Shown: positions 29,961-52,671 of the stretch, one piece after another
How the letters are laid out: every line of letters starts with the position of its first letter
How positions within the stretch are numbered: the stretch's first letter is position 1
Source of the DNA: a virus
IMG/VR virus record: IMGVR_UViG_3300045988_176357
Span: 96,001-160,000 of that record
Direction: 5' to 3' (one strand)
Length of the DNA: 64,000 nucleotides
Notes under the pieces: model-generated
The model's input: the letters and a program-made list of their open reading frames with translations, nothing else
What the model was told of the DNA's origin: nothing
Databases searched by the model: none
Position numbers and translations under genes: made by a program

Positions 29961-30364
29961 TCGTTATCAGTCGTCTTTATGTCTCCGGACTTCCTTTAGA
30001 TAAACTCGAGCAACTGGCAGATGAAATCAGCCACAAAGACTTCACAGACGGCTGTGTCTTCGCATGCTCTGTCCACAAGGATGCTGCTAGGATGTACATA
30101 GACACCTTTGAAGGCGTCGCTACCGACCAGATGGACGATGATCTCAACGAGATTGGCAGACTCGCGCTGAATTATGGTTGCCGCATTGCAGGCAAAATCT
30201 TCCAATTTGGTGAATTTGCAGTATGGTCCGGAAACTTCAATGATGTGAATGAGATCGAATGGGTTGACATGACTCTGTTCATGGAACTGCCCACACACGA
30301 GCTCAGAAAACTTGCAACATATGTAGGTGCCGACAATGTCGTACAAGCTCAACACAAATGTTAA
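29957..30364 (+). CDS. Hypothetical protein.
   Basis: ORF track; start overlaps the upstream stop. Confidence 0.55.
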   Translation: MIVISRLYVSGLPLDKLEQLADEISHKDFTDGCVFACSVHKDAARMYIDTFEGVATDQMDDDLNEIGRLALNYGCRIAGKIFQFGEFAVWSGNFNDVNEIEWVDMTLFMELPTHELRKLATYVGADNVVQAQHKC

Positions 30365-31136
30365 GCCGCTTACTGCTGCACAGGAAAAAGAGGCATTCGC
30401 AGACTTCCATTCCCAAGATACAAAGAAAAGCGAGGCTGCTGCCGACCTGCTGCTTTCCGCTAACTCAAAATTGATCTTTAAATTGGCGCAGGAATTCAAG
30501 CACCATCCCATTCCTTTCGACGATCTCATAGCCGAAGGTTGTGTAGGTCTTATGGTAGCGGCTGGGAAGTTCGACATCAACAGAGGAACACGCTTCATTA
30601 CATATGCAGCATGGTGGATAAAACAGCGGATGCGCAAAGCTGTGGAAACACAGAGCCGCACAGTGCGAGTACCTGCAAAGACACATGTGACCAAGTCCAG
30701 ACTCCTCAGGATGCAAGACCAGCTGAGAGACGAACTAGGTTACCAGCCGGACATCTATCAGCTGTCCGAGTACACGGGCATGCCTGAATCCAAGATCAAG
30801 ACGCTGCTGAACAGCCTTGGGCACGGTGTGTCTGTAGATGCGGAATCAGAAGACACTGAAATGTCCAACCTGGAGAAGGCACGTGTAGCCATTGCCGATG
30901 ATCTTGGTGACCTGCTGGACGACTCCGAGCTGCTGGACGAGATGCGCAAAGCTTTCAAGCGCCTTCCTAAACGTGACCAATTCGTGCTTGGTATCAGGTA
31001 TGGACTTGATGGCGGCGGCGTATCCACACTGGAGGAAGTCGCGCAGGAAGTCGGCAGGTGCAGAGAACGATGCAGACAACTTCAGGAAGAAGCCTTAAGG
31101 AAGCTTCGCAGAGAAATCAGAAAACGAACAAGTTGA
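30327..31136 (+). CDS. Sigma-70 family RNA polymerase sigma factor.
   Basis: Region 2 DLIAEGCVGLMVAAGKFDINRGTRFITYAAWWIKQRM matches sigma-70 region 2.1-2.4. A region 4 HTH follows (TLEEVAQEVGRCRERCRQLQEEALRKLR). Confidence 0.8.
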   Translation: MPTMSYKLNTNVKPLTAAQEKEAFADFHSQDTKKSEAAADLLLSANSKLIFKLAQEFKHHPIPFDDLIAEGCVGLMVAAGKFDINRGTRFITYAAWWIKQRMRKAVETQSRTVRVPAKTHVTKSRLLRMQDQLRDELGYQPDIYQLSEYTGMPESKIKTLLNSLGHGVSVDAESEDTEMSNLEKARVAIADDLGDLLDDSELLDEMRKAFKRLPKRDQFVLGIRYGLDGGGVSTLEEVAQEVGRCRERCRQLQEEALRKLRREIRKRTS

Positions 31137-32064: not shown

Positions 32065-32150
32065 AGCAAAAGGAAGCCCGTAGAGGGCCGCTAAAGGGGT
32101 CACCCCCTCTCGTTATGTAGGGTTACCCTCTAACAGAAGCCAGAGAGGTC
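32057..32150 (+). promoter_or_regulatory. About 90-nt structured repeat element, copy A, immediately upstream of ATG 32156.
   Basis: About 90% identical to 32757-32837. Two small hairpins (gcccgtagagggc; aggggtcacccct) and the palindrome agggttaccct, then GAGAGG and ATG. Confidence 0.5.
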
Positions 32151-32155
32151 TAAGA

Positions 32156-32386
32156 ATGCAAGGAACGGTCTTGGAGGAGGATATCGGAGCATGTAGAAGA
32201 CAGCAGTATGCTTGCCAGACACCACTGTCGATGGTTTCGGTACTGATTTTGACGAGATTGAGGATGCACTGGCTTAACAGTTACGACGTAACTGTTACTG
32301 ACATGTCGCTATTTTCAAGACACCAGAGGCAGCAGAATATCATAATCCATGCCGAAAGGCTGTTTCGTGGGTATCTTCCTCCTTAA
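32156..32386 (+). CDS. Small hypothetical protein.
   Basis: ORF track, preceded by the repeated element and a GAGAGG RBS. Confidence 0.4.
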   Translation: MQGTVLEEDIGACRRQQYACQTPLSMVSVLILTRLRMHWLNSYDVTVTDMSLFSRHQRQQNIIIHAERLFRGYLPP

Positions 32387-32756
32387 TGGTCCTCCTTCTC
32401 CTCCCCTTAAGGTTCCCTGCACCTTCCTAATCCCCTCTATAGTCTCCCCTTAATGCTCCATCTGCCATAAGGTACTTTTTTTATTAGTTTACCTAGTGTA
32501 CCTTGAAGAAGTACCGTAAGGTACTCTGAAAGGTACACAAGATGGACCTGTATATTAGGTATTATTTATTATGATACCCCTAAAGGGGTATCGTAATAAT
32601 ATAATACTGCGCACGCGCATAATGCGCGACGCATATACACGTATACGCAACACATGCTGCGTCCGGGCTGCGCCCTGTCTGGCATGTGGAGCAAGGATTT
32701 TGATTTTCCTTTGTGTGGCACCATATGTTGCCAGAATCCCATCAAACCTAAAAGAA
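32387..32756. other. Non-coding region with a CT-rich tract, five AAGGTAC-type direct repeats and perfect palindromes. Candidate origin or regulatory region.
   Basis: Pyrimidine tract 32395-32470; (a/g)aaggtac repeats 32468-32540; palindromes gataccccTAAAggggtatc, gcgcacgcgc and atgcgcgacgcat. Confidence 0.4.
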
Positions 32757-32837
32757 AGCCCGTAGAGGGCTCCCAAAGGGGTTACCCCCTCTCGTTGTGT
32801 AGGGTTACCCTCTAACAGAAGCCAGAGAGGCCTTAGA
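32757..32837 (+). promoter_or_regulatory. About 90-nt structured repeat element, copy B, upstream of the sbcD-like gene.
   Basis: Near-identical to 32057-32150; ends AGAGAGGCCTTAGA then ATG 32838. Confidence 0.5.
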
Positions 32838-33923
32838 ATGAAACGAAAGATATATCTTGTCAGTGACTGCCATGTGAAGTCACGATTATGGACCAACTTT
32901 GCTGCTGTGCAGGGCGACGCCTACATGGCAATGCGCAAGATGGCATCCGAAACCGACCCGTCAAGTGTGCTGATCTCCTGTGGAGATTTGCTCGACTCGA
33001 ACAGACCCTCCAATGTCGACCTTGCCGAGACAGCCGAATTCCTGAACCACTTTCACAGGGTGCTGTACATAGCTGGCAACCATGACGACTGTCAGCCGTC
33101 TATCGTGCCTGTGATGTGTCCTTATGCGTTGCATCTGACACCTGATGATGTCGTTCGTGAAGGCAATCTCGTCATCTGCGGCATTGACTGGCAGCGCAGC
33201 AGGGAAGCATTCCTTGAGTGCCTTGCTCAGGCTGCACAAACACTCAGTGACGAGACCAAAGATGGCGGTCAACCCGTATTGATCATGCACCAGGCTGTGC
33301 ACGATTTCCTGTCCATCGACGGCGCCAGCATGTGCACAGCAAAGGAAATCCTGGATACCGTAGGACAGGACGTCCTTGTGTACTCAGGCGACATCCATGT
33401 TGTGCAGCATGTCGCTTCCAGCCTTGGCAAAGGCAGAGTACAGTCTCCAGGTCCGCTCGTCCCTCAGGACACTTTGCAGGCCCGTAGACAGCAGGTTTAC
33501 TGGGAACTCGACAGTGACACCGGGGTACCCACCCGGCACCCCGTCAGCGTGCGTTCTTTTGCGTTTCTTGACAGTGCCGCTCCCGACTTCGACCTTGCAG
33601 CGTCTCTGGATGCTCTTGACAGAAGCCTTGAGCTGCCGCCTGTTGCGATACTGCAGGTGCACGGTGACTATGTGCCGCCTAAAAGTCAGCTCAACAGAGA
33701 GGACTGCATTGTAGTTGTCCGTACGGAACGGACTTCGACAGAAGTAAGAACTGCAGATGAGTCCAGTGTAACTACACTGGAGGAAGCCATAGCTCAGGAA
33801 ATTGAAGCTACCGAACCGCTGCTTGCTGACGTGTTGAAGCCGTTGGTGGACAGGCTGACAACTGCGGATAAACCTGACGAGCTTCTATCGACATTGCTTA
33901 CGAATTGGGAGGTGACCACATGA
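32838..33923 (+). CDS. sbcD: SbcD/Mre11-like metallophosphoesterase nuclease.
   Basis: Phosphoesterase motifs LVSDCHV, GDLLD and GNHDD. Overlaps the SbcC-like gene, as in sbcDC operons. Confidence 0.7.
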   Translation: MKRKIYLVSDCHVKSRLWTNFAAVQGDAYMAMRKMASETDPSSVLISCGDLLDSNRPSNVDLAETAEFLNHFHRVLYIAGNHDDCQPSIVPVMCPYALHLTPDDVVREGNLVICGIDWQRSREAFLECLAQAAQTLSDETKDGGQPVLIMHQAVHDFLSIDGASMCTAKEILDTVGQDVLVYSGDIHVVQHVASSLGKGRVQSPGPLVPQDTLQARRQQVYWELDSDTGVPTRHPVSVRSFAFLDSAAPDFDLAASLDALDRSLELPPVAILQVHGDYVPPKSQLNREDCIVVVRTERTSTEVRTADESSVTTLEEAIAQEIEATEPLLADVLKPLVDRLTTADKPDELLSTLLTNWEVTT

Positions 33924-34166
33924 TACAAGTCAAACACATGGATCTGTTTCATTTCTGCCGGTTCGACAAGCTGTCGCTTGATGTACAGCCAGGTCTAACC
34001 AGAATAGCAGGTCCCAATGGCTCAGGTAAGACGACGGTCTTCAGAGCCCTGATCTACGGTCTGACCGGTTGGTGTGATCCGACATGGGGCACACAAAGCG
34101 ACCTGCAGCAGGACGATGAAAGCGTTCCAGGCTATGTCGAACTGACACTGTCGGTAGACGGCGAGG
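33905..34166 (+). CDS. sbcC: SbcC/Rad50-like ATPase, exon 1 (Walker A GPNGSGKTT). Interrupted by IStron copy 1; the apparent TAA at 34169 lies in the shared element sequence.
   Basis: The N-terminal ABC/SMC head and the C-terminal half at 35832..37514 are each incomplete alone. They fuse in frame when the element is removed. Confidence 0.6.
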
Positions 34167-35835
34167 CTTAACAACCTCCATTGAGGAGTGATCCTCATTG
34201 CAAAGAAAGTGAATTGCTAATAGATCCCAAGAGCCTCACGATGCCTGTAACAAGGATCGAAAGAGAAAACAAAGAAGTGAGGATACCGCAAGGCGACAGT
34301 AAGCCTAAACGGGAGTGACAACGGACGTTTAGCAGCCGAGCCTTGTATCGAGAGATACCCGGTACAAGGAAGGTTCATCGACTAGGACATCGTGTCCGTA
34401 CCCGAGCAGCCGTGTGCGTGATAACGCACGAAAGCAAGGGGAAGTACTCTGGCTCAGGAATGAGTCAATGAAATAGTCAGTGCTTCATGGAAACATGAAG
34501 AGTGGTCAGGAGTGACAACCTGAAACCTGCTACTGGGCGGCAACCGGTAGTGAACAGAACCATGGACTTCAATTGTATTGTTATTTCGTCAAGTTTTATT
34601 TACCGTTTTGATCTTTACAGAACGGAGTTATAATACTCTCAGTAACTGGAGAACACTTTGGAACCAAGAGCACACATAATCAGATTGTACCCGACAAGGG
34701 CACAGGAGAAGCAGCTGAAGAATACCATCGGCTGCGCTCGTTATGCGTACAATTGGGCTCTCGAGAAGTGGCGGGAGATGTATGCCGCACATGATAAGGA
34801 CAAGGCTTCTCCAAAGCCAAGTGCCTTGAAGCTGACCAAGTTATGGACTCAGGAGAAGCCTGACTGGGCACATGAGACAGCTTATTGCAGCCAGCAAAGA
34901 GCGATACATAACGTAGGCGTCGCTTATCAGCGCCTTTAGAGGGGCTTATCGGCGAAGCCGAAGTTCCATAAGAAGGGCGGCAAGGAGACGTTTTACGTTG
35001 ATAATGCGAAGGTCGCATGGTACGGCAATAGAATCCAGTTGCCCGACATCGGACGTGTCCGCGTAGCGGAGCAGATCCGTTTCGAGGGCAAGGTAATGGG
35101 CTACACAGTGTCCCATTATGCCGGACAGTGGCATCTCATAGCTCAGGTCAACGCCGAAGGCGACGTGAAACCTTACTGCGCCGATCCCGAGTCCGTCGTC
35201 GGTATCGACGTAGGACTTCTGAATCCGGCTGTAGCCTCCGATGGAACCGTCTTGCAGCTCCCCATAGAGAAGCTCCAAAAGCTTGACGCCAAGCTCAGGC
35301 GGCAGCAGAAGGCACTCTCCAGAAGTCAGCGCAACTCCAGAAACCACGCGAAGCTTCTCGTAAAGAAGCAGCGTACGCAGAATAAGATCAACAACATCCG
35401 AAAGGATGCAGTACATAAGTTCACGACCACCATTGCCAAGAGCCACGGCAAGGTAGTCATCGAAGATCTGGACATCCAAGGAATGAAGGATAAAGCTCCT
35501 TCAAGAGCCGTCAGAAGGGCGCATAACAGTTCCCTCATGGGCGCCATCCATCGGCAGCTCTCCTACAAAGTCCAGCACCTGATCAAGGTGAATCGCTTCT
35601 TCCCGTCTTCCAAGACCTGCAGCAACTGCGGGCACATAAGGAGCGCCCTTGATTTAAGTGAACGTACATATCATTGCGACCACTGCGGAGCGGTCATCGA
35701 CCGCGACCTCAATGCCGCAATCAACTTGATGAAATCAGGGCTGGTCAAGCCCGAAGCGTCTGTGGAGCAAGTCGGTACCGACTTGCGTTGAAGCAGAAAG
35801 TACAAACGGACGCAACGTCCGTAAGTTCATGACAG
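34167..35835 (+). mobile_element. IStron copy 1: structured 5' group-I-intron-like RNA module (about 34167-34650) plus IS605-family tnpB, inserted in the sbcC-like gene. Boundaries are within a few nt.
   Basis: Shares about 370 nt of structured 5' sequence, including the R-like GGTTCATCGACTAGGAC core, and a common 3' end ccgtaagttcatgacag with copy 2. The host gene reading frame is restored on excision. Confidence 0.65.
34658..35791 (+). CDS. tnpB: TnpB (IS605 OrfB family RuvC-like nuclease) inside IStron copy 1. ATG lost; TTG start tentative.
   Basis: RLYPTRAQ N-terminal HTH; RuvC-I GIDVGL, RuvC-II IEDLD, CxxC..CxxC zinc finger, RuvC-III DRDLNAAINL. 83% identical to the protein at 43225..44340. 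Confidence 0.8.
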
Positions 35836-37514
35836 AATACGTCCTGAAGAGGTTTGCAGGGACTGGTACGAAGCTGGTCGACACATTATGTAAAGACGAT
35901 GCAATAATTGTTAAGAATCGTCAAAAAATAAATGCATGGTTAGAGCAGTTCACAGGCATCTCTATGCCGGTAATGGCACAGTTGATGTGGTTGCGACAGG
36001 AAAACTCATCTTGGCTGCTGACGGCTACAGCTGCTCAGATCAACCAGTTCCTCGGTCTCATTTTCGACACCAAAAAGCTTGAGACCTACAGACAGCATCT
36101 GAAGAATGCCTGTGACAGCATACCGAAGCTGCGCGATGACTTTGACACAAGAAGGAAGCAAGCTGCAGAGACATTGCACCAGCAGTCCTCGCAGAAGGAG
36201 CTGCTGTCACAACAGCTGCAGGAACAGCAGGCACTTGTACAGGCTACACGGGAAACGCTGCAGGCATTTGGTAACAGCATGTCTGTAGCCGACCGTGACA
36301 AGATGCTGCGTCTGTGCGAACAGGAACTGGCAGTCTACAACAGAGACCTCGACAAGTATAGGGATCTGCAGGAAGCTCCTGTCGTGGATATTGAAACCGA
36401 GACAGCAGCTGAGACTGCATTGGTCTCCAAAATATCTGCACAGCGGCTTGAAAAGTCAACTTGTGAGCGGATGCTGAACAGTGCCCGTGCCGATAGAGAC
36501 AACAGCAAGTGGAGGCTTGATCAGCTGCGTCATATACATACGCCTGACACCTGTGAACTATGTGGTTGCAACCTCAGTACCAGTCCGGAAACGTACCGTA
36601 ACAACAAAGTAAAACTGTTACTGCAGCAGTCTTTAAGCTACGAAGAGGCCATCAGAACCTTTTCTGAGACCTACGAAACCAGTGCACATAAATGCATTGA
36701 ACTGGAAAAGCGTATGGCCCTGCTTGAACATGCTATTGCTTCAGATAATAAAGTGCTGGAATCAATCGGACAGAAACGTGCTGAAAGACTCCGGTACATG
36801 GAACAGCTGCAGCATAAAACAGAGCTTCAACACAAGATTGAACAGGTGACTGCTGAAATCGAAAAGCTCAAGGCAACACCTGTGTACGATGCGTCTATAT
36901 CGAAGCAGCAGATTGAAAGCATGCTTCGCAGTGCCGAAGCCAGAGAGACGGAACTGAAATCCGCATATGAGACCTGTATTGCTTCTATTGCGTCTGCACA
37001 ACAGATAATACATGATGCAGAAGAAGATGCTGTCAGGTATAAACGTAACGAACGTGTGCGCCAGGTTCTGTCGACTTTGCGTGATGTTTTGTCACAAAGC
37101 AGAGCACAGGCAAGATACCTTAACAGCAAGATATCTGCCTTGAATGGCAATATAGCTCACTATCTGCAACTGTCCGAGATGCCTTTCACAGTCTTCCTCG
37201 ACCCTGCAGAGCATGTTTTCAAGTACAGGATGGATGATTGTGATGTGCAGCATCAGGCAGGCATGCTGTCTGGTGCACAAAAGGCTGCCGCCGCAATTGC
37301 AATACAGATGTCGCTCGTTGTTACGGCAGTGCCGGATCTGACATTGCTTCTGCTGGATGAAGCGGATGCTTCGTTGTCACCGGAGAACAAAGTAATTGCT
37401 ACCAAGCTTTACAGGGTCCTTGCAGAGACGCTCAGTGGAAGCGATGGCAGCACATTCGTCATAAGTCAGTCAGACACTGTTGCTGCAGAATGTGACAGAG
37501 AAATAACACTATAA
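35832..37514 (+). CDS. sbcC: SbcC/Rad50-like ATPase, exon 2: coiled coil, ABC signature LSGAQK, Walker B LLLLDEAD.
   Basis: Continues exon 1 in frame if 34167..35835 (or 34169..35831) is spliced out, giving the junction VDGE(E/AT)YVLKRF. Coiled-coil-rich middle section. Confidence 0.6.
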   Translation, partial: TEYVLKRFAGTGTKLVDTLCKDDAIIVKNRQKINAWLEQFTGISMPVMAQLMWLRQENSSWLLTATAAQINQFLGLIFDTKKLETYRQHLKNACDSIPKLRDDFDTRRKQAAETLHQQSSQKELLSQQLQEQQALVQATRETLQAFGNSMSVADRDKMLRLCEQELAVYNRDLDKYRDLQEAPVVDIETETAAETALVSKISAQRLEKSTCERMLNSARADRDNSKWRLDQLRHIHTPDTCELCGCNLSTSPETYRNNKVKLLLQQSLSYEEAIRTFSETYETSAHKCIELEKRMALLEHAIASDNKVLESIGQKRAERLRYMEQLQHKTELQHKIEQVTAEIEKLKATPVYDASISKQQIESMLRSAEARETELKSAYETCIASIASAQQIIHDAEEDAVRYKRNERVRQVLSTLRDVLSQSRAQARYLNSKISALNGNIAHYLQLSEMPFTVFLDPAEHVFKYRMDDCDVQHQAGMLSGAQKAAAAIAIQMSLVVTAVPDLTLLLLDEADASLSPENKVIATKLYRVLAETLSGSDGSTFVISQSDTVAAECDREITL

Positions 37515-38565: not shown

Positions 38566-38673
38566 AAGCGATGAAAGAAGCTCTGGAAGGTGACCCTAAA
38601 GAACTGTTCAGTGCTCTGGCACACATTATGGTGCAATTCTTCAACAGAGAACTGGTAAACTAAGGAGAACGGA

Positions 38674-39423
38674 ATGAAAGTGACAGAACTTGAAAGAAAA
38701 GAAGTTTGTACGCAAGTAAAGTATGCGTGGAATAAGAAGGTATTTGAGCTTGACGACTGCCCTGACTGGGCTCAGTACGCAGCTGTTGACAAGGATGGAA
38801 CCGCATTCTGGTGCAGTAACGAGCCAGATCTGTGTTCCTTCGGCTGGCTAACCTCTCTGAAAGACAAATATAAGTCCATATGTGACGCTGATAAGCGTCC
38901 GCTTCTGTTCAAGACAGATGGCTGGGTCTACAGTCTGATAAAGAGACCAAAGTCTGCACACAAGAACGTATCGGCACACTTGTGCAGAGACAGCAAAGGC
39001 AGGTTTGTCAGCAGGGTCAAAGACGCCACACCCGATCTGCCTCAAACCCAGTATCAGACAACAGAAGGCCACTATGCCTATGGCAGATGCAAATTGCTCG
39101 AATTCTCCGCACGTGAGCTCAGCGATGAGTATGGTAATGCAATGCTGCAACTGAAACTGCTGCTGAAGAACAAAAAGGGCGTTGTAGAGCTGGTCATAGA
39201 TGTGCGTCCTGTCAGTAAGGAAAAAGGCGCACTGCGTTATTTTGTAGTGCAATCAGGGCTTGAGCATGCACTCTTCAGTGCTTTGTTGCATAAAGACAAA
39301 GAGATCGACGCGGACTTATCTGCGATATGTCCTGTACTTTATATATACAGTAATACTGACATACGTGAAATCAGGTTTCCAGCAGCATCATGCTGGAGAA
39401 TCGAGCGTGAAATTGCACTGTAA
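38674..39423 (+). CDS. Member of the CPDWAQYAAVD paralog family.
   Basis: ELDDCPDWAQYAAVDKDGTAFW motif; AAGGAGAA RBS. Confidence 0.6.
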   Translation: MKVTELERKEVCTQVKYAWNKKVFELDDCPDWAQYAAVDKDGTAFWCSNEPDLCSFGWLTSLKDKYKSICDADKRPLLFKTDGWVYSLIKRPKSAHKNVSAHLCRDSKGRFVSRVKDATPDLPQTQYQTTEGHYAYGRCKLLEFSARELSDEYGNAMLQLKLLLKNKKGVVELVIDVRPVSKEKGALRYFVVQSGLEHALFSALLHKDKEIDADLSAICPVLYIYSNTDIREIRFPAASCWRIEREIAL

Positions 39424-39434
39424 CAGAAAGGAGC

Positions 39435-40139
39435 GTGAAAATGAAAGTAACAGATCTCGATACAAAAGACGTCATAGTAACACGTACAGAAAAACGGTAC
39501 GTACTTAATGAGAAAGTGTTCGAACTTGATGACTGTCCTGACTGGGCTCAGTACGCAGCTGTTGATGAGTGTGGGACTGCGTACTGGCACGAGAACAAGC
39601 CATGTCATATGTTGCACCAATGGTTTCACAGATCAGATAGCAGGTATAAGGCTATTGCTGATTACAGCTTTGATACCACCGACTGGCAGCACAGTCTTAT
39701 CGAGCGACCCAAGAAGGTACTCGAGGTCACTATGGCTGACCTGGAGAAGAAATATGGGTGCAAAGTCAAGCTTGTAAAGGGCTACGATACGCAAGAAAAG
39801 ATAGATGTTACATCTGACGCTGTAGCTGAGACCAGCAGTAACTTAAGTACAGATGTTTACAAGTTGGATACGCAAGTGTTCCTGCTTAACCAGTGTCCGT
39901 CTTGGGCTAAGTGGGCTGCTGTGGATCATGACGGTATTGCAAGCTGGTACAACACTAAGCCAGTTCTCAGCTCAGACAAAAGATGGCAATTGCCGAAAGG
40001 CGTTTTAGGGTGCTGTATGCCAATTGAACGTGTCGGTACTGGACAATACATGCGCTTCGATGCATCGTCTTACTATGATAGTGTAGTGGAAAAGAAAGCG
40101 TGTTTGAGTCCATACAAAGCACGTAAATCCAATGCCTGA
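39435..40139 (+). CDS. Member of the CPDWAQYAAVD paralog family, with two motif copies plus a VTMADLEKKYGCKVKLVKG module.
   Basis: Motifs at residues about 30-50 and about 150-170. Confidence 0.6.
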   Translation: MKMKVTDLDTKDVIVTRTEKRYVLNEKVFELDDCPDWAQYAAVDECGTAYWHENKPCHMLHQWFHRSDSRYKAIADYSFDTTDWQHSLIERPKKVLEVTMADLEKKYGCKVKLVKGYDTQEKIDVTSDAVAETSSNLSTDVYKLDTQVFLLNQCPSWAKWAAVDHDGIASWYNTKPVLSSDKRWQLPKGVLGCCMPIERVGTGQYMRFDASSYYDSVVEKKACLSPYKARKSNA

Positions 40140-41649
40140 CAGCCTGACTATAAAGCTCAGCTATACTGTATGCTCGTGTACCCCGTGGCCTGTGAGCTTG
40201 CGGGATACAGCTCGTTTCACAATGCGTGAGCCAAAGACGCCGGAAGAACTTCGAGCAGAACGAGACGCCATTAAGCGTGCAGGCAGCACAGGCAAACCGA
40301 AGCCCTACAAGTTTACAAGTCACAGCTGCGTTGAAACAAGGAGTGGCTCAGGCTACTTCCTTATAGGCTTTTGGCCGCACCTCAAAGCAGAACTCGAAAA
40401 GCGCAATATACCTTACAGTGTAGACGACCAGCGAGATCGTTCACTCAGACCTGATCCTGATTATAGCTGCCTGTCGGGTATACAGTTCCGAGAAGGACAG
40501 GCAGAAGCATTGGCAAGTATCATATCAAGTGATGGCGGTCTGTTGTGCTCCAATGTTTCGTTCGGTAAAAGCTTCCTTATTAAGGTGCTCTGTCAATTAT
40601 ATCCTACATTGAACATACTTGTCGTATGCAATGCGGGCGAAGTCGTACGGGAGCTGTACAGAGCCATCTCTGAGGTGCTTCCCGGTCAGGTTGGCCTGCT
40701 GGATATGAAACACAGCGAGATCAATGGCAAACGCATCATCGTTACCACAACGAAGTCCATGACGAAAGTCAAACCGGAACAGGTACAGCTGATGCTCGTG
40801 GATGAATGTCATTGCGCTGGGTACAACGAGACAGGATTCCAAATCCAGCAGTTCTGCTTCTGCAGACGATTCGGATTCACAGCAACCCCGATCAGAAACC
40901 AAGGCGATCATCTGTACTTTGAATCGTTATTTGGGCCTGTGCTGCAGCAGCAGACATTTGAGCAGTCTGTAGCGGCAGGTTCGGTAACTCCGATTGAGTA
41001 CACTATGGTACCGATTGAGAAAAAGCTGACATATCTTGACGACATAAAGCAGCTGCCGAATGCAATTCAGTACCGACTGATGTATACCAACAACCCTGTA
41101 AGGAACAGACTTATTGCAGGTGTGTTCAACGATATCAGACAGGCGAATCCTGATGCACAGATACTTATCATGACTCAGACTATCGAGCACTTGATACGCC
41201 TATGTGAACTTATTCCGGGTTTGCATTTCGCACACGGTGAAAGAGGCGATCTCAGTTCATATAAGCGCAAGAAGGGGCTCGAGAATGTCGACATGTTCAA
41301 GTACAGACAGTCAGCTGAGCAACTGTCGTACGTGAAAAAACAGGCCGAGCTTGGTGAGTATAAGTCGCTTATAGCTACAGGCGTCTGGTCAAAGGGCATC
41401 AACCTGCACCACTTATCCGTACTTATAAGAGCGGATGGTGCTGTATCCGGGATACCGTCTGTGCAGATACCTGGACGACTTGCGCGGCTTGACGATGGAA
41501 AGGAAATTGCGTTTCTTGTGGACTTTTCGGACGAGTTCTGTGAGTCTGCAGGTAACAGAGCAGTAGCCAGAACCAGGCATTACAACAAGGAAGGATATGC
41601 GTGCGTATCTTATATAGATATGCTGCAGGAAATAAGAAGGACAAAATGA
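40132..41649 (+). CDS. Superfamily-2 DNA helicase (DEAH-like). Alternative start 40222.
   Basis: Motif I GKS, motif II VDECH, motif III FTATP, motif VI PGRLARLDDG. Confidence 0.6.
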   Translation: MPDSLTIKLSYTVCSCTPWPVSLRDTARFTMREPKTPEELRAERDAIKRAGSTGKPKPYKFTSHSCVETRSGSGYFLIGFWPHLKAELEKRNIPYSVDDQRDRSLRPDPDYSCLSGIQFREGQAEALASIISSDGGLLCSNVSFGKSFLIKVLCQLYPTLNILVVCNAGEVVRELYRAISEVLPGQVGLLDMKHSEINGKRIIVTTTKSMTKVKPEQVQLMLVDECHCAGYNETGFQIQQFCFCRRFGFTATPIRNQGDHLYFESLFGPVLQQQTFEQSVAAGSVTPIEYTMVPIEKKLTYLDDIKQLPNAIQYRLMYTNNPVRNRLIAGVFNDIRQANPDAQILIMTQTIEHLIRLCELIPGLHFAHGERGDLSSYKRKKGLENVDMFKYRQSAEQLSYVKKQAELGEYKSLIATGVWSKGINLHHLSVLIRADGAVSGIPSVQIPGRLARLDDGKEIAFLVDFSDEFCESAGNRAVARTRHYNKEGYACVSYIDMLQEIRRTK

Positions 41650-42729
41650 AGTACAAGAAAGGTGAATTCGGTTACTGGTGGACCAGGAAAAATGAGGATA
41701 TTGAAGGCGGAGAGTATGAGGGCTCCATATGTTGTCCTGAAAATCTTACGTCTTTAAGAGGAGCACCACGAATAGTGACAGGTGAATTCTTTTGTCACCG
41801 TTGCCGTATCACAACACTGAGAGGAGCGCCTGAGAAAGTAGGCGGAAATTTTAGCTGTGTTGAAACGAAGCTGACAGATCTGAAAGGAGCTCCTAAAGAA
41901 GTCGGCGGTAACTTCTACTGTGACATGTGCGGGCTGATATCTCTGGAAGGAGGTCCTCGCAGGATAGGAGGAAGCTTTTACTGCGATAACAACAAGCTCA
42001 CTTCGTTAGAGGGCGGTCCCACTGAGATTTTCGGTGACTACAGATGCAGCTATAACGAGCTTAAAAATTTGTTAGGCGCACCAGAAGTTATTCCTGGCGA
42101 TTTCATCTGCAGTGAAACCACTCTTAATTCACTGGAGGGCTGTCCAAAAGTAGTGAAGGGCTCATTGATCCTGGACTATAATTCGCTCATATCCTTGGAG
42201 CATTGCGCTAAAAGTGTAGGAGGGGACTTCAATGTAAACTTCAATGGGCTTAAGTCGTTGTTAGGCGGGCCCGTATCTGTAGGAGGATCCTATAAGTGCG
42301 TGAACAATGATCTGCGTACTCTTTTTGGTTGTCCGTCAGTCATAAACGGAGACTTTGAGTGCGCAGGCAATGCACTGAATGATCTTGCCTCCTGTCCAAG
42401 TAAAGTAACAGGTAATTTTGATTGCTGTAGTAATCATCTGGTTACCTTGGAAGGAGGTCCCACAGAGGTAGGCGGCGACTATGACTGCTCCGTCAATAAT
42501 CTACAGACGCTTAAAGGAGCTCCATCGTGTGCTAACGGTGATTTTGATTGCAGCTTCAATGAATTGACAAGTCTTGAAGGCTCTCCTGATGTGGTGGCTG
42601 GAGAATTCGTCTGTCATAATAACAAATTGGAGTCTTTGGTCGGAGGACCTAGCGTAGTGTCCGCTCACTATTGCTGTTCGTACAATAACTTGAAGTCCCT
42701 GAGAGGGATTGCTCATAAAATCGGTGGAG
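41601..42729 (+). CDS. BspA-like LRR protein, exon 1 (16 or more 21-aa repeats). Interrupted by IStron copy 2.
   Basis: Repeat pattern GxPxxVGGxFxCxxNxLxSL. The apparent stop lies in sequence shared with the copy 1 insertion site. Confidence 0.55.
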
Positions 42730-44405
42730 CTTAACAACTCCCTTTAACCAGTGATGGTTATTGAACAAGAAAGTGAATTGCTAATAGATCCCAAGAGCCT
42801 CACGACGCCAATAAAATGGATCGAAAGAGAAAACAAAGAAGTGAGGATACCGCAAGGCGACAATAAGCCTAAACGGGAGTGACAACGGACGTTTAGCAGC
42901 CGAGCCATGCGTTCGACAGAACGCCAGCGCATGGAAGGTTCATCGACTAGGACATTGTGTCCGTACCCGAGCAGCCATGTGCGTGATAACGCACGAAAGC
43001 AAGGGGAAGTACTCTTGGTTGGGAACAACCAAATGAAATAGTCAGTGCTTCATGGAAACATGAAGAGCGGTTAGGAGTGACAACCTGAAACCTGCTACTG
43101 GGTGGCAACCGGTAGTGAACAGAACCATGGACTTCAATTGTACTTTAATTTCATCAAGAACATTTAACGTTTTGATCTTTACAGATACGGTGTATAATAC
43201 ACCTAAACTGAAGGTGTAAATTTCATGATCAGAACAAACGTCATAAGATTGTACCCGACAAGGGCACAGGAAGCGCAGCTGAATAACACAGCTGGCGCTT
43301 GTCGTTTCGCATGGAATAAAGCCCTCAGTTACTGGGATGAGCAATATGAAGCTCATCTTAAGGATAAATCCATTCCGTTACCGATTTCTTCCAAAGTAGC
43401 AAGCTGGTATAAAGACAACCGCGAAGAATGGGCGTCCGAAACATCTTCTGTCTGTCAGCGCCAGGAAATACTTCACCTTGGCAAAGCCTTCCACAGCTAC
43501 TTTAGACGTCCGGACCATTTCGCACATTCGAAGTTCCACAAGAAGGGAATTAAGGACTCATTCGAGGTTCCGAATGACAAGGCGAAAATCAAAGACGGCA
43601 GACTTTCATTGCCGAAGATAGGCGAAGTCAAAATGGCTGAGCCGCTTCGCTACCAAGGCAAGATATGCAGCTACACAGTAAAGAAGTCAGGCGGCAACTG
43701 GTATGTTCACATACCTGTGGAAACAGGTAAGGACGAGAGAGTTCGTTGCATCAATCCAGAGTCCGTCGTCGGTATCGACGTAGGACTTCTGAATCCGGCT
43801 GTAGCCAGCGACGGCACCAAGCTGGAGCTCCCAAAGGAAACCTTGGACAAGCTCGACGCCAAACTCAGGCGACAGCAAAAGGCACTCTCCCGTTCACAAA
43901 GGAACTCCAGAAACCATGCCAAGCTTCTTCTCAAGAAGCAGCGTACTCAAAATAAGATCAACAACATCCGAAAGGATGCAGTACACAAGTTCACGACCGC
44001 CATTGCCAAGAGCCACGGCAAGGTAGTCATTGAGGATCTGGATATAAAAGAGATGAAGGCCAAGGCCCCCGCACGTTCAGTGCGTCGCGCCTACAACAGC
44101 TCCCTCATGGGCGCCATTCGCTGGCAGCTCTCTTACAAAGTCCAGCACCTGATCAAGGTGAATCGTTTCTTCCCGTCTTCCAAGACCTGCAGCAACTGCG
44201 GGCACATAAAGGGCGACCTCACCGTAGGTGAACGTACATATCATTGCGACCACTGCGGAGCGGTCATCGACCGCGACCTCAACGCCGCAATCAACTTGAT
44301 GAAAGCAGGGCTGGTCAAGCCCGAAGTGTCTGTGGAGTAAGCTGGTACCAGCTTACGTTGAATCAGAAAGTACAGACGGACGCAATGTCCGTAAGTTCAT
44401 GACAG
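42730..44405 (+). mobile_element. IStron copy 2: group-I-intron-like module plus tnpB inserted in the LRR-protein gene. Boundaries are within a few nt.
   Basis: Starts with the same cttaacaac...gaacaagaaagtgaattgct sequence and ends with the same ccgtaagttcatgacag as copy 1. Excision fuses ...KIGG(D/AT)IYCADNELP, continuing the repeat. Confidence 0.65.
43225..44340 (+). CDS. tnpB: TnpB (IS605 OrfB family) inside IStron copy 2. Intact, with ATG start and TTGATC-17-TATAAT promoter upstream.
   Basis: Same motifs as copy 1. Promoter-like ttgatctttacagatacggtgtataat at about 43170-43197. Confidence 0.85.
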   Translation: MIRTNVIRLYPTRAQEAQLNNTAGACRFAWNKALSYWDEQYEAHLKDKSIPLPISSKVASWYKDNREEWASETSSVCQRQEILHLGKAFHSYFRRPDHFAHSKFHKKGIKDSFEVPNDKAKIKDGRLSLPKIGEVKMAEPLRYQGKICSYTVKKSGGNWYVHIPVETGKDERVRCINPESVVGIDVGLLNPAVASDGTKLELPKETLDKLDAKLRRQQKALSRSQRNSRNHAKLLLKKQRTQNKINNIRKDAVHKFTTAIAKSHGKVVIEDLDIKEMKAKAPARSVRRAYNSSLMGAIRWQLSYKVQHLIKVNRFFPSSKTCSNCGHIKGDLTVGERTYHCDHCGAVIDRDLNAAINLMKAGLVKPEVSVE

Positions 44406-44506
44406 ACATATATTGCGCCGATAATGAGCTGCCTGTTGCTGACAGCAAAAGAGCAAGATACGCTTTCGAAGCCAAGGATAATCTGCTGGAGGTATGTGGT
44501 GGCTTA
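44406..44506 (+). CDS. LRR protein exon 2: short C-terminal continuation IYCADNELPVADSK...EVCGGL.
   Basis: In frame with exon 1 after element removal, and matches the repeat consensus IGGxFYC.NxL. Confidence 0.45.
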
Positions 44507-44619
44507 TAACAAGAACGTCGAGTATTTGTACTCCGTCGTATTTCCTTCGTTTAGTTCCAGCAAGGCGGTGCATGATGAGCTGGTGCACAGACACAGGAAA
44601 GAGACGGAAAAGGTGGGAT

Positions 44620-45352: not shown

Positions 45353-45467
45353 TGTCAGATGTGAAACATGTAAAAGTAAACAAGGACAGAAAGAGGGGAC
45401 TTAAGATGCCTAAGAAAGCGGCAGGCTTACATAGTCAACAATAAGGAGCACAAGAAAGGAGAACAAA

Positions 45468-45818
45468 ATGAAAATAACAGACCTCGACACAAAAAATGTA
45501 CAGGTAACACGTACAGAAAAACGGTACATATTGAACGATAAGGTCTTCCAGCTTGACTGCTGCCCTGACTGGGCTCAGTATGCAGCTGTGGATGAGGATG
45601 GACATGCTTACTGGTACGAGTATAAACCGAACCAATATTCTGCCAGTTGGAGAAATACGGCACCTCGTTTAGTGTCGCACATACATACTGACACACTTTT
45701 CGATGCCACCGACTGGTGGAATAGCCTTATCAGGCGCCCACAGAAGGTACTTGAGGTTACTATGGCAGACCTGGAGAAGAAGTTTGGATGTAAAGTGAAA
45801 ATTGTAAAGGATATTTGA
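45468..45818 (+). CDS. CPDWAQYAAVD-family small protein with the C-terminal VTMADLEKKFGCKVKIVK module.
   Basis: Motif LDCCPDWAQYAAVDEDGHAYW; AAGGAGAACAAA RBS. Confidence 0.6.
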   Translation: MKITDLDTKNVQVTRTEKRYILNDKVFQLDCCPDWAQYAAVDEDGHAYWYEYKPNQYSASWRNTAPRLVSHIHTDTLFDATDWWNSLIRRPQKVLEVTMADLEKKFGCKVKIVKDI

Positions 45819-47731: not shown

Positions 47732-47930
47732 ATCCGACAGGACAATTGAGATACTAGGCGACATGTGTGAACCTTATGCACTGTACTTCTTGTTTGCAGG
47801 CGTAGGATTGCCTTGCGACAAGTACCGTGCAGCTGCCAAGGAATACGCAGCCATGTTTCCGGATGCAGTACGTGCTCTGCCTGAACCATATAAGAAACTT
47901 GGAGAGGCACTGACACATGATACCACTTGA
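47454..47930 (+). CDS. Hypothetical protein.
   Basis: ORF track; plausible globular composition. Confidence 0.5.
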   Translation: MTERELRLRLKRLLGTDRGLPVEKLAAELTTHKVDIFPYMTWLWKTQGQKFRVLLTKKVADYAKAAEKEKQSLPQLIVNAGTIFLHLSEGSLESDRTIEILGDMCEPYALYFLFAGVGLPCDKYRAAAKEYAAMFPDAVRALPEPYKKLGEALTHDTT

Positions 47931-50415
47931 CAAGCATGACTTGACTATGCTGCATGTGCTAAGTTCCGAGAAACTGATGCTGAAGTCACTGAAGGCGGCT
48001 AAGGCAGGACAGGAACTGTTCCCTCCGAGACGTGTGCCTCATCTTGATCTGTTGTGGCGGCACTTCATACGTTTCGCCATACAGTCCAAGAAAGAAGGAC
48101 ACTGGCTGCAGTGGGACAGACAGGCATATGTAGCCGATTGTCTTGAAGAGCTGAAGCAGCGTGACGACATCAGCGACGAATGCAAGGCGCGATTCCAGGC
48201 AATATGCGTGCAGTATATCGGCGCTGAGCCGTTGGATGCAGCGGCAGGTGATAAGCTGCTGATGGATGCTGTAAACGAGGCAATCAGAACACAGATCAGC
48301 AGAGCTGTGTACAACTCCGAGGCCTTTGACGGTATCAGACAGCTGGTCAATAAAGGCGTCGAGCTGAAGGAATCTCTTGAGACAGCGGATGAGAAGCAGA
48401 AATTGTTTGTGAATCCGTTGCTTGACGTCGAGACTTACCTGCATGTACTGCCTAAGATGCCAACAGGTGTACGCTATTTCGACAGGGTGACTAACGGTGG
48501 TATGTCTGAAGGTGAGGTAGCGTTGATTGCTGGCTTGATGGGCGGTGGAAAGTGCCTTGGGAAAGACACACCCGTTCTCATGTACGACGGAACTGTAAAG
48601 AAAGTTCAGGATGTACGTGTAGGTGATCAGCTCATTGGTATGGACTCTACACCAAGGACAGTATTGTCTTTAGGTAGAGGCCGTAGTGAGATGTATAAAG
48701 TCACACCAGTAAAAGGTGACTCATTTACAGTTAACAGGTATCATATTTTGACGATGATATGCAGCGGTCCTGTGTTGTGGAAAGGAGTTAGATATAAACC
48801 AGGCGAGCTTATTGATATCTGTGTTGAAGATTTGTACGCGCAGTCCGACAGCTTTAAATCACTCCTTAAGGTGGTCAGAACAGGTGTGGACTTTAAATCC
48901 AAGTCTGCGCCTGAGTTAGACCCTTACTTTGTAGGTCTGTATTTGGGTGATGGCACAAAGGGAAAGGCACAGATCACAACTGCCGACACGGAAGTTGTTG
49001 GCTACTGTGTTAAGTATATGCAAGGTCTAGGGTTTAATTGCAACATACATAAAGATCCCAGACACAATTGCATTTATGTAAATATAAGTAAAGTCAGCAA
49101 CAAAACCGAAGGGGCGTTAACTATAATCCGTAGGAATACGTTTATAGATGGTGAGAAGCGAATTCTGGATGTGTATAAGACTGGAAGCAGAGAGGTTCGC
49201 ATGAAAATACTTGCGGGTCTAATTGACTCCGATGGATACACGCACCATGGTTTCCATGAGATAGTTACGAAGTATAGCAGTCTAGCAGATGATATATGTT
49301 TCGTAGCGAGATCATTAGGGTATGCAGCATATGTTAAAAAGTGTGAGAAAACATGCTATAATACAGGTGCTGCAGGCACGTACTATAAGGTCAGTATATC
49401 TGGAGATTTCTCAGACTTACCTGTTTTGTTACCTAGACATAAGTTGTCAAAACGTAAGCAAGTTAAATCTGTGCTGAGGACAGGGTATACTATAACCAAA
49501 TTACCCGAGGATGAGTATTATGGGTTTACCATAGATGGTGATCACAGATTTCTTCTGGGTGACTTTACAATTACACATAACACAGCAACAGCAATCCAAC
49601 TTGTCGGCAGTCAGTTGCTTGTAGGCAATCCAGTAGCATGGTTCACCTTTGAGCAGCCATTCGATCAGGACCTGATGCAGCGTATGGTATCCTTCATCAC
49701 AGGCTACAGCCTGGACATCATACGTGGCCGAGAGTTTAAGGATCTGCCAGAGGATATCCGAACAAAGTTCCTTGCACTCAGCAACCAGATGTCGGACAAG
49801 CTGATAGCAGCAGACTTCTCGAACAACAACATGCTTGACAAGAACGATCCTGAAGACGATGGCTCTGTGTACAGTCTGTGCAAGCGACTTGACATATGGG
49901 CGGACCAAGGTAAAGTGCCAAGTTACATCATGTTCGACTGGGTAGGCGCGGCAGTAAAGAGACTGGCTGCTGTACGCAGCATAGACATTGGGCAGATCAC
50001 CAATTACATCGCGCTTGCCAATGAGATCATCGATGGTCTTGTGCAGCTTGCCAAGCAGTACCATACGCGTGTGATCTTCTTTCATCAGCTGGACCCGGCG
50101 ATCAAGAAGTCGCCTCCGTCCAGAAAGCCCACAACTGTAGAGCTTCAAATGATGAAGACCATGTCGAACTACACGCAGTATGCAATGGCAATCGGCAAGC
50201 GCGACGAAAACCAGCGCTGTTGGTTCATCTGCGACAAGTGTCGTAACAGTTATCCATCGGAATGCGTGATCGAACTTGATGGCGCACATGCCAAGTTCAA
50301 TCTGCTGGAAGGCTATGCACCGGGTCGCAATGGTCAGTTCATCAACATCAACGAGCTGCAGGAAGAGCTCAGTGAGAACAGCGACACGGAAAACAGCTAC
50401 CAGCCTATAATCTGA
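47917..50415 (+). CDS. DnaB-like replicative helicase / RecA-superfamily ATPase, interrupted by an intein in the Walker A P-loop.
   Basis: Extein GVRYFDRVTNGGMSEGEVALIAGLMGGGK|TATAIQ matches the DnaB H1 box when the intein is removed. Confidence 0.55.
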   Translation: MIPLDKHDLTMLHVLSSEKLMLKSLKAAKAGQELFPPRRVPHLDLLWRHFIRFAIQSKKEGHWLQWDRQAYVADCLEELKQRDDISDECKARFQAICVQYIGAEPLDAAAGDKLLMDAVNEAIRTQISRAVYNSEAFDGIRQLVNKGVELKESLETADEKQKLFVNPLLDVETYLHVLPKMPTGVRYFDRVTNGGMSEGEVALIAGLMGGGKCLGKDTPVLMYDGTVKKVQDVRVGDQLIGMDSTPRTVLSLGRGRSEMYKVTPVKGDSFTVNRYHILTMICSGPVLWKGVRYKPGELIDICVEDLYAQSDSFKSLLKVVRTGVDFKSKSAPELDPYFVGLYLGDGTKGKAQITTADTEVVGYCVKYMQGLGFNCNIHKDPRHNCIYVNISKVSNKTEGALTIIRRNTFIDGEKRILDVYKTGSREVRMKILAGLIDSDGYTHHGFHEIVTKYSSLADDICFVARSLGYAAYVKKCEKTCYNTGAAGTYYKVSISGDFSDLPVLLPRHKLSKRKQVKSVLRTGYTITKLPEDEYYGFTIDGDHRFLLGDFTITHNTATAIQLVGSQLLVGNPVAWFTFEQPFDQDLMQRMVSFITGYSLDIIRGREFKDLPEDIRTKFLALSNQMSDKLIAADFSNNNMLDKNDPEDDGSVYSLCKRLDIWADQGKVPSYIMFDWVGAAVKRLAAVRSIDIGQITNYIALANEIIDGLVQLAKQYHTRVIFFHQLDPAIKKSPPSRKPTTVELQMMKTMSNYTQYAMAIGKRDENQRCWFICDKCRNSYPSECVIELDGAHAKFNLLEGYAPGRNGQFININELQEELSENSDTENSYQPII
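48553..49581 (+). mobile_element. Intein (343 aa) with a double-motif LAGLIDADG homing endonuclease.
   Basis: Starts CLGKDTPV directly after GGGK. LAGLIDADG blocks FVGLYLGDGTK and ILAGLIDSDGYT. Ends ...TITHN followed by the +1 Thr that restores GKT. Confidence 0.75.
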
Positions 50416-52646: not shown

Positions 52647-52671
52647 CTAAAACATTCAGCCGGGTACTTAT

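Follow-up and report, generated by a model that had tools for sequence, protein, structure and literature searches.

Two apparently essential genes in a 64,000-nt stretch of viral DNA (IMG/VR record IMGVR_UViG_3300045988_176357, record positions 96,001-160,000; hereafter the window, to which all element coordinates refer) are each interrupted on their coding strand by an insertion of about 1.67 kb. The interrupted genes are an sbcC-like gene (33.9-37.5 kb) and a leucine-rich-repeat (LRR) gene (41.6-44.5 kb), and the question raised by this locus is what these insertions are and whether the RNA-guided nuclease TnpB which they encode is directed, as a sequence-only reading had proposed, against genomes that lack them. 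The best explanation overall, which we consider highly probable, is that both insertions are group I IStrons which combine splicing with TnpB-omega-RNA homing into the empty alleles of related phages. This explanation rests on the anatomy and boundaries of the elements, the empty alleles, the covariation of their RNAs, the catalytic residues and the purifying selection on TnpB, from which transcription, splicing, the identity of the target-adjacent motif (TAM), cleavage and homing are predicted. Each full copy consists of a structured 5′ RNA of about 400 nt, one tnpB open reading frame (ORF) and about 100 nt of stem-loops straddling the tnpB stop codon. The copies in the sbcC-like gene (copy A) and in the LRR gene (copy B) are homologous (86% mean column identity in their alignment) and share the right end ...CATGACAG; the sequence GTCCGTAAGTTCATGACAG, which terminates both, occurs twice in the window, compared to zero occurrences expected by chance.

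The boundaries of the elements follow from reading-frame continuity, which sets the intron start at CTTAACAAC and its end at ...GACAG. They are ambiguous by 1-2 nt, as left flank and right end both finish in G or AG (in copy B the 2-nt AG). A 5′ splice site after GCTT, which would have given the canonical U, was considered and dropped, since it creates an in-frame TAA in sbcC; the position after GAGG was later confirmed by the empty alleles. Removal of the group I intron restores both reading frames, in agreement with what had been claimed for it, and the joined SbcC protein of 641 amino acids matches PHROG 77 (SbcC-like) over residues 4-640 (E 7.8e-38). The ends of the element coincide with the predicted splice sites, and its removal would regenerate an intact gene. 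Related phage contigs from IMG/VR (one of 95 kb and one of 10 kb) carry the sbcC and LRR genes without any interruption, with GAGG followed directly by AATACGTCC... in sbcC and GGAG by ACATATATT... in the LRR gene. The LRR allele of contig L005 runs from ...ATCGGTGGAG straight into ACATATATTGCGCC, and the sbcC allele of contig L008 from ...GACGGCGAGG into AATACGTCCTGAAGAGG, the same as in the window. The sequences starting at 35836 (AATACGTCCTGAAGAG) and 44406 (ACATATATTGCGCC), which had been proposed as guides, are therefore established as exon 2 flanks and as targets in empty alleles by comparison and not by inference alone, and the DNA 3′ of each right end is, as judged from these contigs, the target as it occurs in genomes without the insertion. 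The match to the guide is identical in L005 (LRR) and L008 (sbcC), and another related phage, L009 (IMGVR_UViG_3300045988_177579), carries an empty sbcC allele, AATACACTCTG, with three mismatches to the copy A guide at positions 6-8. There GTC is changed to ACT (Val to Thr), while the remainder of the gene is 95% identical; this allele could be resistant to cleavage. The features of the locus are listed in Table 1.

Table 1. Positions of the two IStrons, the genes they interrupt and associated features in the window.
Feature	Position	Strand	Evidence or remark
sbcC-like gene, exon 1	33920..34166	+	ends ...GAC GGC GAG G; end demanded by the frame; junction GAGG-AATACG in L008 and L009
GAGG, last 4 nt of sbcC exon 1	34163..34166	+	P1 partner of the intron guide; presumed TAM
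IStron copy A, whole, 1669 nt	34167..35835	+	alignment with copy B; empty alleles in L008 and L009
Group I ribozyme, copy A	34167..34565	+	Rfam RF00028 and covariation
tnpB, copy A	34658..35791	+	TTG start, 377 codons, TGA stop; in-frame TAG 34937-34939
Omega-RNA-like scaffold, copy A	35738..35835	+	covariation, drop in synonymous substitution rate, fold z-score
Predicted 16-nt guide, copy A, AATACGTCCTGAAGAG	35836..35851	+	start of sbcC exon 2; identical in L008 right after GAGG
sbcC-like gene, exon 2	35836..37514	+	comparison with uninterrupted alleles; PHROG 77 match
LRR gene, exon 1	41646..42729	+	ends ...GGT GGA G; uninterrupted homologue in L005 runs ...KIGGDIYCADNELPVADSK... across the junction
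IStron copy B, 1676 nt	42730..44405	+	GGAG (42726-42729) pairs with intron CTCC; alignment with copy A; empty allele in L005
tnpB, copy B	43225..44340	+	ATG start, 371 codons, TAA stop; no internal stop
Omega-RNA-like scaffold, copy B	44308..44405	+	architecture as in copy A; 3 compensatory pair changes in stem-loop 2
Predicted 16-nt guide, copy B, ACATATATTGCGCCGA	44406..44421	+	start of LRR exon 2; identical in L005 right after GGAG
LRR gene, exon 2	44406..44508	+	comparison with L005
Third related group I intron (copy C), DNA polymerase gene	63780..64000	+	repeat families D11, D13 and D15; truncated by the window end
Empty target sites	54578, 42286, 33030, 46487, 57688, 31826, 46127, 53001, 62772, 61444		

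The 5′ RNA of copy A was matched by the group I intron model of Rfam (RF00028, Intron_gpI) in a permissive scan, at 34168-34500 and over the full length of the model (positions 1-253), with 26.9 bits (E 2.5e-4). At gathering thresholds, Rfam gave no match in the window and no intron in 19 related loci. Since this score is sub-threshold, the fold was tested by covariation. In an alignment of eight diverged relatives, 46 of the 68 predicted ribozyme pairs showed compensatory changes, among them pairs of P6, P7, the P7.1/P7.2-like hairpins, P8 and P9; the P7 helix GACUA/UAGUC, for instance, covaries to GAUCA/UGAUC in L024. As MAFFT misaligned the 5′ ends of introns with a short P5 region, the P1-P5 pairs of this alignment were left unused. 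In copy A, the internal guide of P1 (CCTC) lies at 34175-34178, P2 at 34183-34196 and P7 is formed by GACTA (34380-34384) and TAGTC (34474-34478), followed by P8 and P9, with P7.1/P7.2-like hairpins also present. The P2 stem is wholly different between copies yet always paired (GAGGA/TCCTC in copy A, AACCA/TGGTT in copy B, ACACC/GGTGT in copy C), and intron bases 9-12 always complement the four preceding exon bases (GAGG/CCTC, GGAG/CTCC, GAAG/CTTC, GGCG/CGCC). The last base of the 5′ exon is a G paired with C in place of the usual U-G. Just 3′ of the ribozyme core, at 34548-34555, lies a conserved GTGAACAG, the same sequence with which related TnpB elements terminate at their right ends (..CGTGAACAG). 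It may have been the 3′ end of an ancestral intron without an ORF, or it may serve as an alternative, proximal 3′ splice site.

The third intron, truncated by the window end, has a short P5 region, and its 5′ end could be placed to within about 5 nt. It is 91.6% identical to an intron of contig L013 (2061-3677), whose TnpB is 50% identical to that of copy B. The second-type IStron of L013 is inserted at the position equivalent to 52630/52633 of the window, which is empty there. The third intron is probably a type-2 IStron as well.

At the other end of the element, a recognisable scaffold overlapping the 3′ end of tnpB had been named as the feature on which the proposed guide mechanism depends, and such a scaffold is indeed present. 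It was examined in an alignment of 16 sequences covering late tnpB through the right end (alignment A3), with diverged relatives taken from two sources, viral contigs (TnpB identity 40-50%) and ENA metagenome contigs (TnpB identity 55-69%). RNAalifold predicted three helices with 19 pairs, 15 of which show compensatory changes. Scaffold cells were paired in 96.7% of cases, compared to 37-43% when the partners were slid by 1-3 columns, and the covariation score was 0.76 versus at most 0.14 for the slid versions; none of 500 shuffles reached the observed values. The fold z-score is about -2.7 to -3.2. The synonymous substitution rate (dS) drops to 0.00-0.08 in the last 47 codons of tnpB, versus 0.21-0.39 upstream, a collapse that is expected for an overlapping RNA function. 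In copy A, stem-loop 1 spans 35738-35752 (loop GGTCA, 35743-35747), a closing helix joins 35759-35763 to 35793-35797, stem-loop 2 pairs 35764-35773 with 35780-35789, and stem-loop 3 occupies 35806-35822; the scaffold encloses the stop codon of tnpB (35789-35791), and the tail ...UGACAG runs to 35835, with a TGAC that may form a pseudoknot (35830-35833) and a terminal AG (35834-35835). The pairing between GUCA of the first loop and UGAC of the tail is found in most members and covaries once (GACA/UGUC in L092), although with 4 bp it is too short for statistics. It matches the published omega-RNA, in which the first stem-loop forms a pseudoknot with the 3′ end of the scaffold (10.1101/2023.11.20.567912). 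The predicted guides that follow the tail were given a length of 16 nt by analogy with characterised TnpBs.

The scaffold is also conserved in TnpB elements without a detected upstream intron (most of L012-L023, and L005). One such element, at 2437-3703 of L005/L011, has a TnpB of 50% identity and the right end ...GAGATCATGACAG, and replaces 341 nt of window sequence between 45082 and 45423. The same TnpB and omega-RNA lineage thus exists with and without a ribozyme.

Both TnpB copies contain the Pfam domains OrfB_IS605, Cas12f1-like_TNB and HTH_OrfB_IS605. Copy B aligns with the ISDra2 TnpB (PDB 8exa; E 4e-39), with D185/E270/D351 corresponding to D191/E278/D361, and has both CxxC pairs of the zinc finger, while copy A shares with it the intact motifs GIDVG, VVIEDLD and IDRDLNAA. 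The statement that both genes retain the catalytic D/E/D residues therefore stands, yet it leaves out that copy A depends on read-through of an in-frame TAG. Between copies at different sites, the ratio of nonsynonymous to synonymous substitution rates (dN/dS) of tnpB is 0.13-0.19, which indicates purifying selection; it is 0.14 between tnpB-A and a second TAG-bearing copy, and it is low downstream of the TAG, too. TnpB occurs with two N-terminal types (59% nucleotide identity). Copies A and B and L090 share a conserved TATAAT box (34629-34634 in copy A, 24 nt before the tnpB-A start), which might belong to an internal promoter for tnpB and the omega-RNA.

The genome had been described as recoded, and it does use TAG as a sense codon: between 1 and 25.3 kb, about 3-7% of the codons of most ORFs are TAG, whereas the early and replication genes (27-64 kb) are practically free of it, the TAG of tnpB-A excepted. 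At this codon (approximately codon 94), A-type copies at different sites carry TAG in five cases and CGG in five, so that TAG-bearing tnpB copies occupy at least five sites. A search for a suppressor tRNA in the window found none. The simplest reading, in view of this distribution and of the low dN/dS downstream of the codon, is that the recoded translation of the phage reads through the tnpB-A TAG, so that full-length TnpB-A would not be made until late infection. The same delay logic has been noted in Agate phages, in which an early gene contains an intron with a recoded endonuclease (Borges 2021 preprint).

The TAG might also be taken as a sign that the TnpB module is decaying or inert and that the 3′ structure serves only the intron, through presentation of the 3′ splice site, or recognition at the DNA level; the elements would then be no more than common group I introns of phages in which a defunct gene is carried along. 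This would be in line with the fact that the stem-loop nearest the 3′ end is needed for splicing in CboIStron of Clostridium botulinum. The low dN/dS, which also holds 3′ of the TAG and when two TAG-bearing copies are compared with each other, the intact catalytic triad and zinc-finger cysteines, the use of TAG as a sense codon in the late genes of this phage and the spread of TAG-bearing copies over at least five sites all argue against a dead gene, as does the conservation of the scaffold where no intron was detected. We regard an inert TnpB as the least probable of all explanations considered here.

A scan of metagenome contigs for exact matches to the right end yielded 36 loci, most of which came from human gut. 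These loci and the viral contigs combined contain 35 distinct 16-nt guides, corresponding to 35 insertion sites. The left flank was GAGG, GGAG or GAAG (G-R-R-G) in all 12 recoverable cases, each accompanied by a complementary intron sequence. Looking for a TAM directly 5′ of the left end, as the sequence-only reading had suggested, hence revealed a motif, which is not T-rich. When the guides of the other elements were compared with the window, 11 matching sites were found, seven of them perfect over 16 nt. Although the motif was not a search criterion, GAGG, GGAG or GAAG stands directly 5′ of 10 of these 11 sites, while the site at 33030 is preceded by CGAG. The empty site at 57688 falls between a Shine-Dalgarno sequence (AAAGGAGG) and its ATG. 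The window phage therefore carries intact presumptive TAMs and targets for the elements of related phages, and related phages carry empty sites for copies A and B. Such a reciprocal polymorphism of filled and empty sites is the substrate that homing requires. In the occupied allele, ...ACAG precedes the target in place of G-R-R-G, which, by analogy with CboIStron (TCGG versus TGGG), should prevent self-cutting.

Neither a tnpA nor any other ORF lies between ribozyme and tnpB in any copy or relative examined (about 470 nt of intron upstream of tnpB), and no tnpA or recombinase was present among 20 window ORFs scanned, a scan that was not exhaustive. Candidate routes to new sites are a TnpA acting in trans, repair induced by off-target TnpB cuts, and reverse splicing. 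In the first case, the elements would be IStrons of the IS607 type with restorative homing, mobilised by a serine-recombinase TnpA encoded elsewhere in the phage or in the host, and TnpB would mainly reinstall copies after excision. CboIStron works in this way, the many different insertion sites imply real transposition, and the target ending in G or GG, the right end AG, the lack of a target duplication and the G of the 5′ exon are all as in group B/IS607 IStrons. Opposed to this are the absence of tnpA and recombinase just described, the lack of a close TnpB relative among bacterial species representatives (at most 38% identity) and the difference, at GAGG sites, between the GG of the flank and the AG of the right end, which would be awkward for a serine-recombinase crossover. 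Mobilisation in trans is possible but, on the whole, rather doubtful.

The absence of tnpA from the copies examined could also be reconciled with an RNA-mediated spread, in which the intron reverse-splices at 4-nt guide matches in transcripts, followed by reverse transcription and recombination, with TnpB as a passenger or a later aid to homing. Indeed, at every single insertion the preceding 4 nt match the intron guide, and all copies are sense-oriented in transcribed genes, including the one at a site between Shine-Dalgarno sequence and ATG. The same pattern is, however, predicted if insertions that can be spliced are selected for in a phage densely packed with genes. Near the elements, no reverse transcriptase was seen, and TnpB is clearly under purifying selection. 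Reverse-splicing transposition of group I introns is, moreover, rare in nature. Spread by reverse splicing is accordingly considered very unlikely.

According to the explanation that we prefer, homing by splicing IStrons, the ribozyme guide CCUC or CUCC in the transcript of the host gene would pair with GAGG or GGAG, the four bases at the end of the exon. Splicing at the terminal G of ...CAUGACAG would restore the sbcC-like and LRR frames, with the predicted junctions GAGG followed by AAUACGUCC (sbcC) and GGAG followed by ACAUAUAUU (LRR), so that the insertion would cost the phage little. Unspliced transcripts would yield TnpB and an omega-RNA whose guide of about 16 nt consists of the first bases of exon 2. 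For CboIStron, it has been found that splicing parts the scaffold from the guide and that RNA structure and TnpB binding repress splicing (10.1101/2023.11.20.567912); because of this separation, splicing and guide formation would be mutually exclusive. In a co-infecting related phage without the insertion, the empty allele would show G-R-R-G directly 5′ of the guide match and be cut by TnpB; the break would be repaired by recombination with the occupied genome and the element thereby acquired, amounting to intron homing or to marker exclusion. The window phage has recombination proteins of its own, UvsX-like and SbcCD-like. The occupied allele would be spared, with ...ACAG replacing the target motif.

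Several observations weigh against this explanation. The TAM is deduced from insertion sites, and since P1 pairing needs the same four bases, selection for splicing alone could yield the motif. No tnpA was found that would account for the spread to 35 different sites. The RF00028 score of the ribozyme is below the gathering score of 50 bits, as are those of its relatives, and no Rfam family matches the scaffold, with no match to a curated reRNA model such as the one derived from RAGATH-18 either (34050-35950, E up to 10). Full-length TnpB-A requires read-through of the TAG. A plus-strand scan upstream of tnpB found no canonical -35/-10 pair (no -35 at 16-18 nt from the TATAAT box). The idea that the N-terminal type of TnpB decides between GAGG and GGAG targets was ruled out, as L109 and L126 break the correlation.

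A more far-reaching version of the preferred explanation would see in these elements a transposase-free, phage-restricted IStron lineage that spreads like an RNA-guided gene drive when gut phages infect the same cell, with the same four bases serving as TAM and as 5′ exon-binding site, new sites being reached via off-target TnpB cuts or reverse splicing, and the nuclease of one sub-lineage gated to late infection by a TAG that only the recoded translation of the phage reads. Taken as a whole, this scenario is unlikely. The clade itself appears to be confined to phage-like contigs. Its closest TnpB in GenBank phages is at most 35% identical, and DNA searches of GenBank phages, near and distant, gave no match.

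What is new at this locus is the apparently phage-restricted clade with at least 35 insertion sites, the presence of at least ten empty target sites in the window and the in-frame TAG in one tnpB. With these many sites and with exact empty alleles in close relatives, the clade offers a natural system in which the proposed RNA-guided homing of introns from phage to phage could be studied; the 64 kb of this window alone contain about ten intact targets for the guides of other phages. A mobile-element gene furthermore seems adapted to the alternative genetic code of the phage. For the annotation of such recoded phages, the elements explain why the sbcC, LRR and DNA polymerase genes appear split.

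Some further features of the window are worth recording. The DnaB-like helicase gene (47914-50415) has an apparent intein, with a Cys start (CLGKDT...), a LAGLIDSDGY motif and an end at ...THN followed by T; its flanks match helicase profiles. The genes at 52651-53943 and 56619-57677 are paralogous and combine DUF7666 with pentapeptide repeats, and the former contains about 27 tandem 15-nt units (52989-53546). Two genes are each preceded by a copy of a 98-nt repeat (32068-32165 and 32750-32847, 90% identical) with GC-rich hairpins. This repeat may have a regulatory function or act as a promoter recognised by the sigma factor that the phage itself encodes (30327-31136). Small paralogous genes with a conserved segment encoding CPDWAQYAAVD are found at 38662-39800, 45465-45810, 57684-58030 and 58624-58682, and in related phages the insertion sites of IStrons and of other TnpB elements cluster around genes of this family.

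In comparison with known systems, the elements are TnpB-only, group B-like IStrons and hence belong to a kind already known. Their assignment to the IS605 family did not hold: the criteria of IS200/IS605 elements are a T-rich target and a Y1 (HUH) TnpA, and here a G-R-R-G target without tnpA was found, along with a terminal 5′ exon G that pairs with C. Such traits characterise group B (IS607-type) IStrons and CsISt1 and do not fit IS605; for group B, the G-C pair at the last exon base has been published as a peculiarity (PMC4227781). The arrangement had also been judged unusual, whereas its mechanism had already been described for IStrons (10.1101/2023.11.20.567912; PMC13565253). The earlier interpretation is thus partly supported, its mechanism being right in substance and already described. 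IStrons and TnpB homing are established in Clostridia, and IStrons in C. botulinum phages have been catalogued. For CboIStron, it was shown experimentally that TnpB and omega-RNA cut the empty donor joint, and the TAM is at the same time the transposase target and the pairing partner at the 5′ splice site (10.1101/2023.11.20.567912). Intron homing by IStrons lacking TnpA has been explicitly proposed, with experimental validation pending (PMC13565253).

Group B elements (CboIStron and BcISt1; PMC4227781; 10.1101/2023.11.20.567912) have the same order of a 5′ group I (IA-like) ribozyme, tnpB and a right-end omega-RNA. Their insertion sites likewise follow a G-rich 4-mer complementary to the intron guide, with G paired with C at the last base of the 5′ exon; they lack a target duplication and have splice sites that equal the element ends. 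Their scaffold, too, has consecutive stem-loops and a guide formed by the 3′ flank, and its pseudoknot to the 3′ tail has a candidate counterpart here. They differ in the motif (TGGG/AGGG, here GAGG/GGAG/GAAG), in the right end (...CGG, here ...ACAG) and in a long AU-rich 3′ inverted repeat, which was not noticed here, although no search was aimed at one. No copy in the present set has tnpA; as loss of TnpA is common in IStrons, this is compatible with descent from IS607. The host replicons here are a clade of TAG-recoded gut phages, with TnpB proteins at most 38% identical to those of bacterial species representatives. CsISt1 of Clostridium sporogenes (PMC4227781), likened by description only, also has ORF B (TnpB) alone, inserts downstream of AG and ends in CAG, but is a single chromosomal copy in a bacterium. 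Group A (IS200/IS605-type) IStrons such as CdISt1 of Clostridioides difficile share the intron, TnpB and a right-end omega-RNA, with TnpA often lost; they insert after TTGAT, ATTAT or TTTAT, use a U-G 5′ splice site and end in TCAG, and the present elements show none of these traits.

Phage group I introns with homing endonucleases (T4 td/I-TevI; Agate phages, Borges 2021 preprint) are comparable in a different respect. They, too, reside in early or DNA-metabolism genes, and their nuclease cuts the intron-less allele of a co-infecting phage, the role that is proposed here for an RNA-guided nuclease in place of the protein homing endonucleases of T4-like phages. In these systems, the output of the nuclease is delayed relative to the host gene, and an in-frame recoded stop would have the same effect. 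Whereas protein homing endonucleases are tied to one site, the RNA-guided nuclease of these IStrons would be retargeted automatically with each new insertion site.

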